Shown here: piece by piece, positions 2,761 to 20,000 of the stretch
Position numbering within the stretch: the stretch's first letter is position 1
Layout: each line of letters starts with the position of its first letter
Assembly (NCBI RefSeq): GCF_004010195.1
Contig: NC_057718.1
Span: forward strand, 72,719,615 to 72,739,614
Length of the DNA: 20,000 bases
From: Chiloscyllium plagiosum
Lineage: Eukaryota
Direction: 5' to 3'
The notes under the pieces: model-generated
What the model saw: only the letters and a program-made list of their open reading frames with translations
Databases searched by the model: none
What the model was told of the DNA's origin: nothing
Made by a program: the position numbers and the translations under genes

Positions 2761-2870
2761 CTGAATCAGGAGGTCCTTGGAAAAGTTATTAAAATAGTAG
2801 ATTGCATGCTCCTCTGGATTACTATGTCTGGTGCTTCTGGGGCCTATGACACAACCATTGTTATCAAAAC
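2761..2870 (-). CDS. DOP1A: DOP1A (DOPEY1) coding exon, 110 nt
   Basis: Acceptor atttatttAG|GT and donor CAG|GTatac. Phase-1 start. Translates (G)FDNNGCVIGPRSTRHSNPEEHAIYYFNNFSKDLLIQ, in frame with the 5428-5329 exon and matching vertebrate DOP1A (FDNNG..IGPRSTRHSNPEEHA.YYF). Confidence 0.93.
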
Positions 2871-2986
2871 CTAAATAAATTGAAGAACAGAGACTTAACC
2901 ATGCGCACAAATAAAATGTGTATCTAAATGTCTACTATAACACTTAGCTGATCTTTCTAAATTATTTCAATTTTTTTTTTACTTAC

Positions 2987-3135
2987 CAAATGGTAATCCA
3001 TTGAAGGAAAGCAAAAGAGTCACACACAGTTAATCAATACTAATCATTCACACTCAAAAGTCATGAATCACATTGATAGTTTACAGACTATATTTATTGA
3101 AACATCTAAAATTGACTCTTGGGAGCACTTTTGGC
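2987..3135 (-). other. DOP1A: Candidate cassette (poison) or alternative terminal exon in DOP1A intron, 149 nt
   Basis: About 70-nt AG-free, mostly pyrimidine-rich tract ending ccAG|GCC (AG at 3137-3136). Consensus donor TTG|GTAAGT at 2987/2986. Stops in all three frames. AATAAA at 3098-3093. No expression evidence. Confidence 0.45.
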
Positions 3136-3689
3136 CTGGATCAGAAGATTGCCCGATTCAGGTGCAGGGAGCAAGTGAGGAAATAAAAGTGAGACAGCAA
3201 GAGTGTGTCTCACGGAGCAAGCATAAACATTCATTTGAATCCGAACAGAGGGAGTCAGCCACCAAACACAGACACAAACAACCGCACATCCCTGCATGCA
3301 TTCCACTGAGGTTAATGTACTCGACCAAACTCCTTGGCTCTTCCCCAGTCTTTTGCCCCTTCCCTTGTGATCAAGACACGGAAGTCAGTCTATTTTTCCC
3401 TTTCTTATGTTGTTCTTCTTAATTAACCAAAAAAGGTTTAATCAGTTTCTTGACATTTTAAAAATAGTCATAGTTATTAATAACTCATTTTTAAAAATGC
3501 TCATATTATTGCTTTAGCATTTCTTTTGCTTAGCGGCTGATTTGCTTTCTCCAATTCAACTTATATTTTGAAATTCATGTTTAATGTCATGCCAAACCTT
3601 ATCTTTCTGAAATTGAGAAGAAATTGAAGTGTGGCCCCTCACATGAAAAGTTTTTAGTTTCAAGAGCAAATAAACCTTGTCTTCAACGA

Positions 3690-4170
3690 CATGAAACATT
3701 AGTTAGACTGCTTTTGGAGTCAGGTGTGCAATCCTGGTCTTCTTCTCTTAGGCAGAGTATATTTGCCATTGTGGAGTGGCTCACCAAGCTGATTCCCAGG
3801 ATGATGGGACCATCCTGCGAGAAGAGATTGAGGAGTCTGGTCCTGTACTCTCATGAGTTTAAAACAATGAAAGACCACCTCATAAATTCTTAATGACATA
3901 AATAGAATAAGTGTAGAAAGGATTTTTCCCCCAGCTGTGGGATCTAGAACCAAGAACCAAACAGACTCAGAAAAGAAAGGCAAACCATGTATAAGGTGCA
4001 AGACAAGGATGAATTTCTTCACTCGGGGAGTAGTAATTGTTTGTAATTCCTTCCTCCAGACACTGTGGAGTTGATTCATTAAGTTCAATTCAGAGATCTA
4101 CAAACTAACAACATCAAGAGATAAAAGGATACTAAGGGAATATAGCAGTGAGGCAGATGATTAGCAATAT
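3690..4170 (+). mobile_element. CR1-clade LINE 3' fragment, decayed
   Basis: WSSSLRQSIFAIVE.LTKLIPRMMGPSCEKRLRSLVLYSHEFKTMK matches the CR1 ORF2 C-terminus (WSP.LR.DI.ALE.VQRRFTRLIPGM.GLSYEERL..LGLYSLEFRRMR). Confidence 0.75.
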
Positions 4171-4179
4171 GGAAATAAA

Positions 4180-5120
4180 AGTGACTGAGTGATGGGAAAT
4201 AGAAAATAATGGTCAATGGATGTTTTTCAATTGTTAGGTTTGTAGTGCAGTTCCCCAGGAGTTGATATCGGGACCTTTGTTAATAATACAGATAGAATTT
4301 CCAAGTTTGCAGATGACTCAAAATTTTTGAAGAATTATAAATGGTGAGGAAGATAATCTGGAACTCCAAAAGGACATTGACAAGTTGGTAGGGTAGGAGG
4401 ATAGGTAGTGGATGAGGTGTAATGCAGAGAAGAGTGAGGTGACAGAGTTTGATTGGGACCACATAAGTTATGGGTATTGTGAACAGATCCATGAAGGTGG
4501 CAGCACAAGTGAAGAGAACAGCTGGTAAACTATAAGGTGCCCTCCATTTTATTAACAGGCGAATACAGCACAAGAATAATGAGGCGATGCTCGCCATAAT
4601 GCTGAAACCTCTATGAAGCTCTGGTTAGGCCCCAAGTAGACTCTTGTTTCCGATACTACACATCTCACTTTACTAACAAGGTAAGGATCCTTAAGGCAAG
4701 AGGAGACTTACCAGAATGGATGAAGGATTTTAGTTGCAAGGATAGGTTTGAAAAGTGGGGATTTTATTTCTTATAGCAAAGGAGGTTGAGGGAAGATTTA
4801 ATACAAGTTCAGTATATTATGAAAAACTTAGATAATGTAGCCAAAAATAACTGCTTCCATTAGCAGATAAAGACTAGAGGGTTTGGACTAGAGATTAAGG
4901 GAGAATGTAAGGAATTATATTGTTACACAGTAAATTAAAATAAACTTGCTGCTCACAAAAATTGTGGAAGCAAAAGTAGCCAAAGCTTGAAAGGAAACTG
5001 GATGAAATCTTGAAGTAACAACCTTGCATGATCAAGCAGAGAAAGTGGGACGGAGGATTGCTGTGTGGGGAATTGGTTGGTCAGATGGTTTCCTACATTG
5101 CTGTAAATGACTATGATGTC
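4180..5120 (+). mobile_element. CR1-clade LINE fragment (RT to 3' end), decayed
   Basis: gttccccaggagttgatatcgggacct (VPQG..LGP region) and tccaagtttgcagatgactcaaaa (SKFADDSK) at about 4300-4323. CR1-type 3' end ...ctgtaaatgactatgat. Confidence 0.75.
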
Positions 5121-5328
5121 ATGGAGTGCTTCCTTATGATGAGCAGATAAATGAACTTACTTTACTGGAGGAATGTAGGATCCCAGTATTTGAAATACAA
5201 ACTTTACATCAACATTCACTACATCTCCTTATGGGTTTCATATAAACCTGCCAGTGTTAAAGCACAGTTGGTGAGCTAAATGCATTTGCTGTTTTAAGTA
5301 CATGCATATGTGGATGATTCTAACTCAC

Positions 5329-5428
5329 CAAGGAGCCAGGCGTAAAGTCTACGGTTGAGAGACATATCTCTCCGAAGTACTACGTGTAGAGCTGCAGACA
5401 ATATCTGGATCATGTCTGGGCGAGTTGC
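5329..5428 (-). CDS. DOP1A: DOP1A (DOPEY1) coding exon, 100 nt
   Basis: Acceptor tttttttcttcccaaatAG|GCA and donor TTG|GTGAGT. Translates [33 protein letters not shown](G), which contains the Dopey family signature [13 protein letters not shown]. Phase 0 in, phase 1 out. Confidence 0.96.
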
Positions 5429-11993: not shown

Positions 11994-14169
11994 ATGGAAT
12001 TAAACAAAGGAAATTACATAGGCATAAGAACAGGTTTGGTCAGAGTAGATTGGGCAGGATGAGCGGTGGCAGATGTTTAAGGAGCTTCTGAATTTCTCCC
12101 AACTAAAATACATCCCACTGAAGAAGATAGATGGTAAGGGGCGGGGGGAGATTTATAAATAAATAAAAATAAAACAATCCACGGCTAAACAAAGAGGTCA
12201 AGGACAATTTAAAGTCAAAAACTAAGGTATACCGTATTGCAAAAGGCCAGTGGCAGGTTGGAAGGTTAGATAACTTCCAATCATAAACAAAAGGATACTT
12301 AAAAAAAAACAGCCAAGGTAAATTACAAAAGAAAACTAGCACAAACATTAAAAAGAATAGCAAACCCTCTATAAATTTATAAAAGTGAAGAGTCACTAAG
12401 GTGTATGTTGGTCCATTGGAATTTGAAACCGGAGAGTTAATAGTGGGGAACACTGAAATGGCAAAGATGCTAAATCAATACTGTGCTTCAGTTTTCACGG
12501 TGGAGGACAGCATGGAATGGGAAAGTCACAGACAATAAAAAGATAGAACTTAGAACAATCAACATTCATAGGGAAAAGATACTCAGCGAACTACTGGGAT
12601 TGAGGGCAGACAGTTCCCAAGCCTGATGGCCTACATCCTAGATTATTAAAGGAAGTGGTGAGAGAGATAGTGGATCTATTGGTTACAACATTCCAAAATT
12701 CCCTGGATACGGGAAAGGTTCCAATGGATTGGAAAAATGCTAACATAACACCCTTATTCAAAACAGAAGGAAGAAATATGTAAGAAATTACAGACCAGTT
12801 AGTTTAATATCTGCTGTTGGTAAGTGATAGAATAAACTATCAAGGAAGCAATATCACGACATTTGGATAGTCAAAACGCTATCCATCAGAGTCAGTATGG
12901 TTTTATGAAGGGTAAATCATGTTTGACTAACTTGTTCGACTTCTTCGGAGATGTAACAAACAAAGAGGATAATGGGAATTCTGTAGATATCTGGACTTCC
13001 AGAAGGCATTTGATAAGGTGCCACACAAAAGGTTAATTCACAAAGTTGGATCATACGGTAATTTATTAGCTTGAATAGGTGACTGGCTGATGGACAGAAG
13101 ATAGAATCGGGATAAATAGATTTTTCTCTGGATGGCAAGATGTAACTAATGGGATGCCACAGGGTTCGATCCTTGGACCTCAGCTATTTACAATCTATAT
13201 TAACAACTTGGATACAGGGATAGGAGGCTCTATAGCCAAATTTGTGAACGACAAAACTGGGGGGTTTGGTAAATTGCGAGGAGAAAATAAGAACGTTACA
13301 AATGGATATAGATAGGTTAGGAGAGTGGACCAAAATGTGGCAAATGCAGCTTAATGTGAATAAGTATGAGGTCACGCATTTTGGTCAAAATAAAAATGGG
13401 AAGGCGACCTATTATCTAACTGGGAAGAGATTTTGGGGTACTCTGGTGCAGAGGGATCTGGATGTCCTCGTTCAACAGTCACAGAAAATTAGCATGCAAG
13501 CACAGGAGATAATAAAGAAAGCGAATGGAATGTTGACATTTATAGCTAAAGCAATAGAATATAAAGGTAAGGAAGCATTATTGCAAGTATAAAAGGCATT
13601 GGTGAGACCGCACCTGGAGTAGTATGAACAGTTTTAGTCCCCTTATCTGAAGTACGATGTAGTGGCATTGGAAGCAGTTCAAAGGAGGTTCACTAGATTG
13701 ATCCCACAGATGAGAGGTTTGTTGTATGAAAAGATATTGAACAGTTTAGGCCAATACTATCTGGAATTTAGAAGAATGAGGAGAGATCAAATTGAGGTAC
13801 TCAAGATGATAAAAGGCTTGGATAAAATAAATGTGGAGTGGATGCTTCCGTTTGTGGACCATTGTAGAACGATAGGTCATAGTCTTAGGATAACGGGTAG
13901 CAAATTTAAAACAGAGTTGAGGAGAATCTATTTCTCCCAAAAGGGTTGTGAACTTGTGGAATTCATTACACCAAAGTGCAGAGGATGCTGGAACAATGAG
14001 TAAATTTAAGGAGGAATTAGACAGGAATTTAATTGATAAGGGGTTGAAGAGTTATGAAGAAAAGCCAGGAAAATGGGGGTGAGGAGCATATCAGCAATGA
14101 TCAAATAGCAGAGCAGATTTGATGGGCCAATTGGCCTGTTTCTGCATCTCTCTCATGAACTTATGAAGC
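11994..14169 (+). mobile_element. 5'-truncated CR1 LINE (ORF2 pseudogene with RT), about 2.2 kb
   Basis: Motifs YRPVSL, FQKAFDKVPHKRL, GMPQGSILGPQLFTIYINNLD, degenerate FADD (FVND) and ALEAVQRRFTRLIP. Tail catgaacttatgaa. Flanks gacactctcata (11982-11993) and gacactccata (14170-14180). Confidence 0.92.
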
Positions 14170-14401
14170 GACACTCCATATTTCTGGTTTTCCTGAGCAT
14201 AAGCAGATAATCTTACATTTCTTGACACTGTGTTCCATAGGCTAATTCCTTTCCCAAGTGTTTAGCTTCTCCAAACCTCCTTGAAGCATTTCTACATACT
14301 TCTCATAAAGCACACTTCCGCCTAGTTTTGTTTCATTGAAAACTTTGAAATACTACATTTAATCCCCACATCTAAAATCATTGACATAGACTGTGAACAG
14401 C

Positions 14402-17400
14402 CATAGAGATGTACAACATGGAAATAGACCCATCCATGCCGATCAGATATCCAAACTAAATTTAGTCCCACCTGCCAGCACCTGGCCCATATTGCTCCAA
14501 ACCCTTCCTATTCATATAACCATCCAAATGCCTCTTAAATGTTGCAATTGTACTAACCTCCACCACTTCCTCTGGCAGCTCATTCCATACATGTACTACC
14601 CTCTGAGTGAACAAGTTGCCCCATAGGTCTCTTTTATATCTTTCCCCTCTTACCCTAAACCTATGCCCTCTAGTTCTGGACTCCCCAACCCCAGGGAAAA
14701 GACCTTGTCTATTTATCCTATCCATGCTCCTCATAATTTTGTAAACCTCTATAAAGTCACCCCTGAGCTTCTGACACTCCAGGGAAAACAGCCCCAGCCT
14801 GTTCAGCCTCTCCCTTTGCTCATATCCTCCAACCCTGGCAACATCCTTGTAAATCTTTTCTGAACGATTTCAAGTTTCACAACATCTTTCCGATAGGAAG
14901 GAGACCAGAAATGCAAGCAGCATTCCAACAGTGACCTAACCAATGTTCTGTACAGCCACACCATTACCTCCCAACTCCTGTACTCAATACTCTGACCAAT
15001 AAAAGAAAGCATACCAAACGCCTTTTTCACTATCTCTCTGTTCAGCAACGCTCTCATTACCTTACCATTAAGGTGTTTAAGTCCTGCTAAGATTTGCTTT
15101 CCCAAAATGCAGCACCTCACATTTATCTGAATTAAACTCCATCTGCCACTTCTCAGCCCATTGGCCCATCTGGTCCAGATCCTGTTGTAATCTGAGTTAA
15201 CCCCCTTCGCTTTCCACTATACCTCCAATTTTAGTGTCATCTGCAAACTTATTAACTGTACCTCTGATGCTCGCATCCAAATCATTTATGTAAGTGACAA
15301 AAAGTAGAGGACCCAGCACTGATCCTTGTGACACTCCTCTGGTCACAGGCCTCCAGTCTGAAAAACAACCCTACACCACCCTCTGTCTTCTACCTTTGAG
15401 CCAGTTCTGTATCCAAATGGCTAGTTCTCCCTGTATTCACTGATATCTAACCTTGCTAACCAGTCTCCCATGGGGAACCTTGTCGAACGCCTTACTGAAG
15501 TCCATATAGATCATATCTACCACTCTGCCCTCATCAATCCTCTTTGTTACTTCCTCAAAAAACTCAATCAAGTTTGAGAGACATTATTTCCCTCGCACAA
15601 AACCATGTTGTCTATCCCTAATCAGTCATTGCCTTGCCAAATACATGTACATCCTGTCCCTCAGGATTCCCTCCAACAACTTGCCCACCACCGACGTCAG
15701 GTTTATTGGTCCATAGTTCCCTGGCTTGTCCTTACCACACTTCTTAAACAGCGGCACCACGTAAGCCAACCCCCAGTCTTCCGGCACCTCACCTGTGACT
15801 ATTGATGATACAAATATCTCAGCAAGAGGCCCAGTAATCACTTCTCTAGCTTCCCACATAATTCTAGGGTTCACCTGATCAGGTCCTGGGGATTTATCCA
15901 CTTTTATGCGTTTCAAGACATCCAGCAATTCCTCCTCTGAAATATGGACTTTTTGCAAGATGTCACCATCTATTTCCCTACAGTCTATATCTTCCATATC
16001 CTTTCCACAGAAAATACTGATGCAAAATACTCATCTAGTATCTCCCCCATTTTCTGCGGCTCCACACAAAGGCTGCCTTGCTGATCCCCGAGGAGCCCTA
16101 TTCTCTCCTTAGTTACCCTTTTGTCCTTAATATATTCATAAAAACTCTTTGGATTTTCCTTAATTCTATTTGCCAAAGCTATCTCATGTCCCCTTTTTGC
16201 TCTCCTGATTTCCCTCTTAAGTATACTCCAAGGATTCACTCGATCTATCCTGTCTATACCTGACATATGCTTCCTTCTTTTTCTTAACCAAACCCTCAAT
16301 TTCTTTAGTCATCCAGCATTCCCTATACCTACGAGCCTTTCCTTTCACCTGAACAGGAATATGCTTTCTCTGGATTCTAGTTCTCATTTCTGAAGGCTTC
16401 CCATTTTCCAGTCATCCCTTTACCTGCGAACATCTGCTCCCAATCAATTTTTGAAAGTTCTTGCCTAATATGGTCAAAATTGGCCTTTCTCCAATTTAGA
16501 ACTTCAACTTTTAGATCTGGTCTATCCTTTTCCATCATTATTTTAAATCTAATAGAATTATGGTCACCTGCCCTGCCTTATTTTCCAAGAGTAAGTCAAG
16601 TTTTGCATCTTCTCTAGTAGATACATCCACATACTGAGTCAGAAAATTGTCTCGTACACACTTAAATTCCTCTCCATCTAAACCCTTAACACTATGGCAG
16701 TTCCCTACCATAGTGAAAGTTAAAATCCCCGACTATAACCACCCTATTATTCTTACAGATGGCTGAGATCTCCTTACAAGTTTGTTTTTCAATTTCCCTC
16801 TGACTATTAGGGGGTCTATAATATAATCCCAATTAGGGTCTATAATACAATCCCAATAACTGTCTCTCCAACTGATCCATTCGATCTGATAAGATTCGTA
16901 GCCAGCAGCATTTATGGCAGATATAATTCGCAGTAACCCTTAAACTCTCTAAACGCCCACATCTGACAAGAAGTGCATATCACTCTACTAAAGGCCATTT
17001 TTGCTCCTTCACAATCTACAATCTACAGAAAATAAAACAGTCTTATTCCTCTACAAACATTGCCCCAGGTTAAATCAATAGTTATGGCTTATATTTTAAG
17101 TCTAATCAAGAGACATATCTCCAAAAACATTTAATCAAGAAAGAACTTGCTCTACTCACTACTGCAGATTCTCTGTAGGCCACACTTAAAACAACGATTA
17201 AATTATCTGATTCTGTGCCATGAATTTCACCCAACAGTTTCTCAAAGATCAGCTGTGAATTTCACTGATTGATAATTTTCCCAGATGCACTCCAATGTCC
17301 AGCGATACACAAATTCAAACATCAAAGGCAGTAACTGTGCAGGTTTTCTCTCTCCTGCAATGACCTCACCATGTGCTTCCTTTGTCTGTTCTTCTCCCTT

Positions 17401-18254: not shown

Positions 18255-18606
18255 AGGAAATAGGACCAGTGGGGCCAAGAAATAGCAGATGGAGTTTAAT
18301 TTAGATAAATACGAATTGTTGCATTTTGGTAAGACAAATCAGGACAGGGTTTACACAGTTAATAGTACAGGCCTGGGGAGTGTTATCAAACAGAGTCCCA
18401 AAGGCTCACGCGCATAGTTCCTTGAAAATAGAATCACAAGGATGATAAAGAAGGCATTTGACACGCCTGCCTTCATCGGTCAGAGCATTGAGTACAGGTG
18501 TTAGGACATCACTGTACAACTGTACAGGACATTGGTACGGCCACATTCGGAGTACAGAATACAGTTCTGGTCACCCTGCATAGGAAAGATGTTATTAAAT
18601 AGGAAA
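18255..18606 (+). mobile_element. HER1/CR1 ORF2 internal fragment
   Basis: QMEFNLDKYELLHFGK and LYRTLVRPHSEYRIQFWSP motifs. Ends abruptly where Penelope sequence begins. Confidence 0.8.
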
Positions 18607-19015
18607 GTCAAGAACGGGGTACGATGCTCAACTCATCGACCGCCAGTTCCGAAGTGCCACAGCAAGGAACTGTAATGACCTCCTCAGGACACAGACATGT
18701 GCTGCAACCGACAGGGTACCCTTCATTGTTCAGTATTTCCCAGGAGCTGAAAAATTATCCATGTTCTTTGTGACCTGCAACACATTATCAATGAGGATGA
18801 GCACCTCACCAAGACTTTTCCCACACCTCCACTACTTGCCTTTAAACAACCGCCAAACCTCAAACAGATCATAATTCGTAGCAAGCTGCCAGACTCTCAG
18901 GACAACTCCATACAACCATCACGGTAGATGCCGCAAGACGTGTCAGAGTGTGGACATAGATACCACCATTATGCTTGGGGACACCTCCCACCTTGTACAT
19001 GGCAGGTACTCATTT
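18607..19015 (+). mobile_element. Penelope-like element fragment (RT thumb to Cys-containing linker, Neptune-like)
   Basis: GYDAQLIDRQF..DRVPFIVQYFPG..TFPTPPLLAFKQPPNLKQIIIRSKLP..GRCRKTCQSVDIDTT. Confidence 0.75.
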
Positions 19016-20000
19016 GAGGTAAAAACAATGACTGCAGATGCTGGAAACCTCCTCCAAGACTTCCGTTTCCCCGGCCCCCAACGCTTCATCTTCACCATGG
19101 AGATCCAATCCCTCTACACCTCCATCCGCCATGACCAGGGCCTCCAAGCCCTCCCTTTTTTCCTCCCCAACGTCCCCCAACAGTACCCTTCCACCGACAC
19201 TCTCATTCGTTTTGCCGAACTGGTCCTCACCCTTAACAATTTCTCCTTTGAATCCTCCCACTTCCTCCAGACCAAAGGGGTAGCCATGGGCACATGTATG
19301 GGCCCCAGCTATGCCTCTTTGTTGGCTACGTAGAACAGTTGATCTTCCGTAATTACACCGGCACCACTCCCCACCTCTTCCTCCGCTACATTGATGACTG
19401 CATTGGCGCCACCTCGTGCTCCCGCGAGGAGGTTGAGCAATTCATCAACTTCACCAACACATTCCACCCTGACCTTAAATTTACCTGGACCATCTCTGAC
19501 ACCTCCCTCCCCTTCCTGGACCTCTCCATCTCCATCAGTAACGACCGACTTGACACTGACATCTTCTACAAACCCACCGACTCCCACAGCTACCTGGATG
19601 ACACCTCTTCCCACCCTACCTCTTGCAAAAATGCCATCCCGTATTCCCAATTCCTCCGCCTCCACCGTATCTGCTCCCAGGAGGACCAGTTCCACCACAG
19701 AACACACCAGAAGGCCTCCTTCTTTAGAGACCGCAATTTCCCTTCCCACGTGGTTAAAGATGCCCTCCAACGCATCTCATCCACATCCCGCACCTCCGCC
19801 CTCAGACCCAACCCCCCCAACCGCAACAAGGACAGAACGCCCCTGGTGCCCACCTTCCACCCTACCAACCTCCGCATAAACCAAATCATCCGCCGACATT
19901 CCCCCCACCCCCAAACAGACCCCACCACCAGGGATATATTTCCCTCCCCACCACTCTCCGCCTTCCGCAAAGACCGTTCCCTCCGTGACTACCTGGCCAG
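19016..20000 (+). mobile_element. Penelope-like element RT region, young, running off the window
   Basis: FTMEIQSLYTSI, LTLNNFSF, QTKGVAMGTCMGPSYA, LRYIDD, FLDL, YKPTDSHSYL and IPYSQFLRL. C-rich sense strand with few frameshifts. Confidence 0.92.

Follow-up and report, generated by a model that had tools for sequence, protein, structure and literature searches.

The exon 6-7 intron of DOP1A in the shark Chiloscyllium plagiosum likely holds a real conserved donor element, judging from its comparison with the orthologous intron of a bird-like locus (L028). Tentatively, and at a little under an even chance, we propose that this element ends a cassette exon (149 nt in the shark and 143 nt in L028) that is mostly skipped and carries a premature stop, likely subjecting transcripts that include it to nonsense-mediated decay (NMD). 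The window, i.e., the whole stretch of DNA that was analyzed, comprises 20,000 nucleotides of the forward strand (contig NC_057718.1, positions 72,719,615 to 72,739,614), and positions are counted within it unless a contig or locus is named. The segment at 2981..3022 appears to be the best-supported part of the finding.

Features of the DOP1A exon 6-7 region in the window
Feature	Position	Strand	Remarks
DOP1A coding exon 7 (G-FDNNG...DLLIQ)	2761..2870	-	110 nt; in-frame alternative acceptor 27 nt inside
Conserved element: UGC-bearing pyrimidine run, TGGA, TTG|GTAAGT donor	2981..3022	-	Without gaps, L028 has the same base at 19 of 35 upstream and 7 of 7 donor positions
Candidate poison cassette exon, 149 nt (3n+2)	2987..3135	-	Positional counterpart in L028; RNA shows skipping
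TGA that would end the DOP1A frame if the exon is included (codon 316)	3068..3070	-	Read from the sequence
AATAAA in candidate exon	3093..3098	-	Counterpart at L028:2779-2784
AG-free tract	3138..3208	-	Branch-like yUnAy adenosines at 3190, 3184, and 3176 (55, 49, and 41 nt ahead of the exon)
DOP1A coding exon 6 (ATRPD...LYAWLL-G)	5329..5428	-	Last Dopey_N exon; phase-1 donor GTGAGT; seen in spliced contigs

The three DOP1A coding exons on the minus strand of the window are exons 5 to 7, counted from the start codon. Mapping the shark DOP1A protein exon by exon around the window assigned DOP1A to contig G000:C9 and its paralogue DOP1B to C12, and protein comparison established the identity of the exon peptides to Chiloscyllium and Hemiscyllium proteins. 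The intron between exons 6 and 7 is 2458 nt long. Because exon 6 ends at residue 294 and the Pfam Dopey_N domain covers residues 11 to 295, the truncation that an earlier note on this DNA had placed just after Dopey_N is located exactly. Exon 7 contains an alternative acceptor, ATAG|G (window 2843-2870, minus strand), whose use drops FDNNGCVIG; it is present in L028 too and is used in 25 of 311 junction-spanning proteins, which come from sharks, rays, bichirs, frogs, reptiles, birds, and mammals. The large upstream intron contains fragmented ORFs (reverse transcriptase and endonuclease) at 12400-16700 and 18600-20000 that we take to be CR1/LINE-like, with what is presumably a Penelope-like reverse transcriptase at the window end.

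Re-reading of the sequence bore out the splice signals described in the earlier note. On the minus strand, the acceptor CCAG|G has its first exon base at 3135, and the donor TTG|GTAAGT follows the last exon base at 2987, giving an exon of 149 nt that ends 116 nt ahead of the exon 7 start (2870). The AG-free tract, estimated earlier at about 70 nt, measures 71 nt (3208-3138) and is 70% pyrimidine, unevenly so, with 78% in 3208-3160 and 57% in the last 23 nt. Since the branch-like adenosines lie 41 to 55 nt away, use of this acceptor would need scanning from a rather distant branch point. As had been noted, all three frames of the candidate exon contain stops, and the DOP1A frame is extended by GQKCSQESILDVSINIVCKLSM before a TGA at 3070-3068, 81 nt ahead of the junction, so that the product of inclusion would have 315 residues. 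The AATAAA at 3098-3093 and its GU-rich downstream tract are likewise present. Unspliced, DNA-like contigs of run X9 cover 2776-3222 with 0 differences, which confirms the bases.

Several other origins of the segment were rejected. The candidate exon region had a single match in three genome searches (a lower bound on copy number) and contains just short chance-like repeats, arguing against a repeat or mobile element. Two Rfam matches (E values of 2.7 and 3.8) fall outside the element and far under the gathering score, and a plus-strand ORF of 141 amino acids (2997-3422) has no homologue at an E value of ≤1. A U12-type intron was dismissed because the upstream donors are U2-type in both the shark and L028; a U12-like donor motif, GTATCCTTT, occurs at 4132 (minus strand) in the exon 6-7 intron.

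To place these signals against the background of the gene, splice matrices were built from 25 donors and 26 acceptors of shark DOP1A, with two mis-called junctions (one whole and one donor) left out. The candidate donor scored 9.4, above 14 of the 25 real donors and thus mid-range; the acceptor scored 3.1, above 2 of 26 real acceptors, and its -25..-4 tract exceeded none of the 26. In 224.6 kb of DOP1A introns, 39 of the 61 equally or more strong intronic donors have an acceptor at least as strong as the candidate's 30 to 250 nt upstream, or roughly one equally strong pseudo-exon every 5.8 kb; when an AG-free zone of at least 70 nt is required in addition, 3 of the 61 are left, the candidate among them. 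The heptamer GGTAAGT occurs 14 times in these introns, twice in the exon 6-7 intron, where the second donor-like site lies at 4712 (minus strand) with an acceptor 176 nt upstream. An AATAAA in a window of the candidate's kind is expected by chance in about 8% of cases. Judged on the shark sequence alone, the candidate looks like an ordinary pseudo-exon.

The comparison with L028 gives a different picture of the donor end. L028 is a vertebrate locus that was retrieved by a pattern scan of metagenome contigs and contains the complete orthologous intron (988 nt); its exon peptides are bird-like in 72 of 73 residues. It was the one orthologous intron obtained from metagenome contigs, and searches of viral_contigs and genome_contigs returned 0 matches. 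In L028, TTG|GTAAGT lies 104 nt ahead of exon 7, compared with 116 nt in the shark. Among 20,000 dinucleotide shuffles of the L028 intron, GGTAAGT fell 96 to 136 nt from the exon 53 times; TT stood before it in 7 cases, and TGGA at -14 was present as well in 0. In an ungapped comparison, 17 of the 30 nt upstream of the donor are identical between the shark and L028, the best value among the 3462 GGT sites that shark DOP1A contains in 280 kb. When the comparison was limited to the 16 GGTAAGT sites, the candidate ranked first with each of six window sizes; these sizes were picked after viewing the alignment, and the comparison concerns one orthologue. For comparison, the flanks of four constitutive acceptors share 8 to 12 of 30 nt. 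Longer windows weaken the match, which 12 control sites equal at 40 nt and 37 do at 60 nt. Local alignment of the last 300 nt without an anchor scored 19, compared with a shuffle mean of 20.5. These results suggest that the donor and the 30 to 35 nt ahead of it exceed chance once L028 is compared.

Upstream of its last 31 nt, the candidate exon is not alignable between the shark and L028. An L028 acceptor at 2756 nevertheless scores 9.4, compared with 4.5 for the real exon 7 acceptor of L028, and would open a counterpart exon (L028:2756-2898) of 143 nt, also 3n+2, with a stop 63 nt ahead of the junction. The chance of an AG as strong as this one in a 41-nt window is about 0.05. The acceptor surroundings are identical at 13 of 30 nt, a value that 4.9% of control AGs equal, and the AG-free tract at 3138..3208 could not be aligned to L028, where the AG-free zone measures 29 nt. 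AATAAA lies 119 nt ahead of the donor in L028 and 111 nt in the shark (chance of about 0.11). No conserved RNA pairing was detected, with the best partners sitting at differing places in the two species, and the donor is absent from the same intron of the paralogue DOP1B. Of the conservation of exon and splice sites for which the earlier note had proposed to look, the donor end was thus found, while the acceptor sequence is marginal and the exon body is not conserved in this one orthologue.

The earlier note had also proposed a search for junction reads. In all five RNA-like contig sets (X1 to X5), exons 6 and 7 are joined directly (5329>2870) in one contig each, at depths of 30.7, 8.4, 6.3, 6.5, and 7.2; four of these sets are one study under a second organism label. 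One raw read of run X10 has the same joint, and X11 gave 0 reads. The raw runs were sampled at 2% and 6%; eight of 20 listed runs were analyzed, and none of the 20 came from NMD-blocked material. The inclusion junctions 5329>3135 and 2987>2870 were absent from the contigs of X1 to X5 and from X10 and X11, at low depth and with contigs that drop rare forms. Since the contigs and the raw read give the direct joint alone, skipping of the candidate exon is the main form in the sampled RNA, with which inclusion at a low level or in particular tissues would be compatible. No RNA contigs lie over 2903-3407, and contigs join across that span. No reads marked 3' ends near the AATAAA in two poly(A) runs (sampled at 2% and 6%, with 4 and 0 reads placed), and no 5' ends were seen within the intron in the shallow RNA runs. 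Contigs of X1 also lie within the intron at 4152-4334 and 4888-5250, with a depth of 4 to 10 compared with 31 for the spliced form; they may be pre-mRNA, retention, or DNA.

Protein records were examined for the same junction. Of 533 proteins, 311 span it, including 281 canonical sequences, the 25 that lack nine residues, 4 that lack one, and 1 gene-model read-through. These proteins were the best matches and part of the cluster members (120 of 1260), and because the query used for ranking had no insert, sequences with an insert are disfavored in this test. None of the proteins examined ends in the predicted shark or L028 tail after spliced exons 5 and 6, and the best 15 short matches in the search for tails spliced to exon 6 were rejected because each resembles genomic read-through. 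Although exon 6 offers Met266 and Met282, the annotated lizard isoform P0345 begins at Met327, in exon 7, which points to a transcript model broken in or at the exon 6-7 intron. This counts as circumstantial evidence for a poison exon.

A stop located more than 50 to 55 nt upstream of an exon junction triggers NMD, and the distances of 81 nt in the shark and 63 nt in L028 both exceed this. The signals, frame, and stop can be read directly from the shark intron, and the poison exon is further favored by the conserved donor and by the L028 exon of the same size and phase that also carries a stop; the absence of inclusion junctions and the weak acceptor count against it. We infer inclusion, its regulation, and decay along the following lines. 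U1 would bind 2986-2981 and define an exon back to the first AG past the branch-like sites at 3190-3176, with exon definition reaching the nearest usable AG, some 145 nt upstream of the donor. Proteins on the conserved pyrimidine/UGC stretch at the exon 3' end would set inclusion in some tissue or state. Inclusion would introduce the premature stop, NMD would remove the message, and DOP1A dosage would be trimmed; with about 30 downstream junctions, the inclusion product would be an NMD substrate. The drift of the exon body would follow from the fact that, for a poison exon, only the stop matters.

The evidence was also weighed against readings that do without a poison exon. The conserved part is limited to the donor and the 31 to 35 nt ahead of it, which would suit a decoy, in which U1 and an RNA-binding protein bind although no exon is spliced and thereby tune retention, the choice of the 27-nt exon 7 acceptor, or cleavage at the AATAAA. 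The lack of inclusion in RNA, the conserved alternative acceptor 116 nt downstream, and the similar placement of the AATAAA ahead of the donor in both species (111 and 119 nt) fit as well. A decoy does not, however, account for the strong L028 acceptor at matching distance and phase, no conserved pairing partner was found, and retention of 2903-3407 is unseen because no RNA contigs lie there and contigs span across it; we regard this reading as unlikely, though a serious one. Conservation of a donor alone is also what an alternative first exon would require, with an internal promoter yielding a DOP1A protein without Dopey_N whose translation begins at the first downstream Met. The isoforms P0345 and P0303 (horn shark, MVGILQ start) are compatible with such an exon, but both also fit a poison exon and P0303 also fits skipping of exon 7; moreover, no 5' ends were seen in the shallow RNA and nothing upstream is conserved, which leaves an alternative first exon improbable. 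Similarly improbable is a pseudo-exon, i.e., chance splice-like motifs in an intron of 2458 nt that are unused beyond splicing noise. Its density of about one per 5.8 kb, the weak acceptor, the absence of inclusion reads, and the other GGTAAGT of the intron all agree with it, but the site had already been named when the L028 match was tested, and such a match is unlikely to arise by chance.

Two further readings keep an exon and change its kind. The earlier note had raised an alternative last exon, in which splicing to 3135 and cleavage after the AATAAA would produce a Dopey_N-only protein of 315 residues. The AATAAA with its GU-rich tract is in place, a CA at 3064, 29 nt past it, would keep the stop (one of two candidate CA sites in the shark follows the stop, the other precedes it), and Dopey_N-only isoforms exist in mouse and rat records. 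In L028, however, the CA sites 24, 35, and 46 nt after the AATAAA all precede the first in-frame stop (0 of 3 keep it), so a Dopey_N-only protein is not conserved; the shark and L028 tails are unrelated, the conserved downstream donor would not be required, and the rodent isoform ends one intron later. One record, P0002, continues from exon 6 with a tail like that of the shark (anchored score of 30, with 0 of 5000 shuffles reaching it over 27 tails), but BLASTP gave no alignment. At an exon 6 position occupied by Gln, Glu, or Asp in 19 of 19 cartilaginous fishes, this protein has the Arg of bony vertebrates; its N terminus is intron-like, and it matches another read-through tail equally (29), which indicates that it is probably bony-fish genomic read-through, unexplained and not junction evidence. 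The proposal of a last exon is thus weak, and we give it hardly any credence. Mammalian records P0019, P0116, and P0121-P0126 read into the intron after exon 7 and are Dopey_N-only proteins of 346 to 351 amino acids; the shark frame past 2760 (minus strand) reaches a stop after two codons, and an AATAAA lies at 2561. The remaining reading is an in-frame microexon of 12 nt (2998-2987) with a UG in place of an AG acceptor, which, perhaps in neurons, would insert LPFG in the shark or LHLG in L028 behind Dopey_N. TG|GA lies exactly 12 nt ahead of the donor and the frame is open in both species, so this reading accounts for the location of the conservation. A UGC stands within a pyrimidine run at equal offset, the shark has branch-like As 32 and 36 nt upstream, and DOP1A has a real neural microexon of similar layout. 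Neural microexons of the SRRM3/4 type are 3 to 27 nt long, are in frame, and have a UGC in the upstream tract; the 12-nt segment has this size, frame, and UGC, but not an AG acceptor. No AG occurs within 52 nt (shark, with the base confirmed by X9) or 62 nt (L028) of the donor, and the nearer AG inside the donor scores -1.3 and 1.7 as an acceptor. Use of this donor-internal AG as an exon 7 acceptor (extensions of 111 and 99 nt) was itself rejected for its poor scores and for stops in the shark. The L028 tract scores -4.1, under 26 of 26 real tracts, and L028 has no branch-like site 10 to 100 nt upstream. The 4-residue insert occurs in 0 of the 311 junction-spanning proteins among the matches listed, and the RNA has no inserted letters at the exon 6-7 joint. 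PMC2374985 describes human TG acceptors solely at distances of up to 28 nt from a working AG, and here no used AG lies that close, the nearest upstream AG being 41 nt away. That jawed vertebrates kept a 12-nt DOP1A microexon with a stand-alone UG acceptor for more than 400 million years therefore seems very improbable.

These readings differ in their consequences. According to PMC13186030, DOP1A is loss-of-function intolerant, and some neurodevelopmental patients carry truncating variants of it. If a poison exon is common to shark and bird, a human counterpart would be plausible; such an exon would be worth screening for deep-intronic variants, and oligonucleotides that make splicing skip it might increase DOP1A output. 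Should a decoy or a UG microexon be the right reading, the element would be a unit of 45 nt that can be dissected by minigene. A UG microexon would have been missed by annotation that demands an AG and would be an exception to the dependence of TG acceptors on a partner AG.

No literature record of an exon in the DOP1A exon 6-7 intron was found, VastDB and subscription papers being outside the scope of the search, and DOP1A had 0 matches in the supplements of PMC13187750, PMC9882217, and PMC4176328 (three of four files). A DOPEY1 exon-skipping junction in PMC8091538 (chr6:83152028-83153510) was rejected since neither its span of 1483 nt nor its flanks agree with this intron. The precedent for the 12-nt segment would be the TG 3' splice sites known from U2 introns, but these are always alternatives to a used AG at most 28 nt away, and the main text of PMC2374985 contains no DOPEY match. 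The neural microexon of DOP1A, PTRSMRV(L/I)CQ (30 nt), which is described in PMC12626420, is a regulated small exon with a UGC in its pyrimidine tract; it differs from the present finding in being in frame, with a canonical AG, 23 kb downstream, and present in annotated proteins. The shark genome encodes it as PTRSMRVLCQ at G000:C9:72699667-72699638 (minus strand), with canonical signals and an upstream UGC. Mouse Dop1a isoform 4 (UniProt Q8BL99-4, P0019, 346 amino acids) and its rat counterpart resemble the product of the alternative last exon in being Dopey_N-only (Pfam 11-295), but they contain exon 7, read into the next intron, and have no cassette in the exon 6-7 intron.

A comparable exon of the same gene is an NMD-stimulating cassette exon of mouse Dop1a (137 nt; chr9:86392668-86392804, GRCm39), which is likewise unproductive and 3n+2 and whose percent spliced in, according to PMC11188260, rises from 0.31 to 0.56 with cycloheximide in day-24 neurons. 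It differs in that it probably lies in another intron, six exons past the exon 6-7 intron. Presumably, with a shift of about -117,947 from GRCm38 to GRCm39, it sits 3.7 kb downstream of the 30-nt microexon, so it is probably not in the exon 6-7 intron. In the shark, a pseudo-exon-like segment of 100 nt at G000:C9:72688320-72688221 (minus strand), with an AG-free zone of 100 nt and a strong donor, lies between the microexon and the next exon, and the mouse NMD exon probably maps to this region. PMC11632617, one supplement of which has 0 matches to DOP1A or DOPEY1, describes conserved cryptic human poison exons that are, like the candidate, unannotated and in a conserved intronic element; they have GTEx junction support. 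The candidate is conserved over about 40 nt only. Such human exons are expected to be tissue restricted and under-represented in RNA-seq, according to the same paper. From its splice signals and its L028 counterpart, the segment at 2987..3135 is a candidate unannotated member of this well-known class of poison exons.
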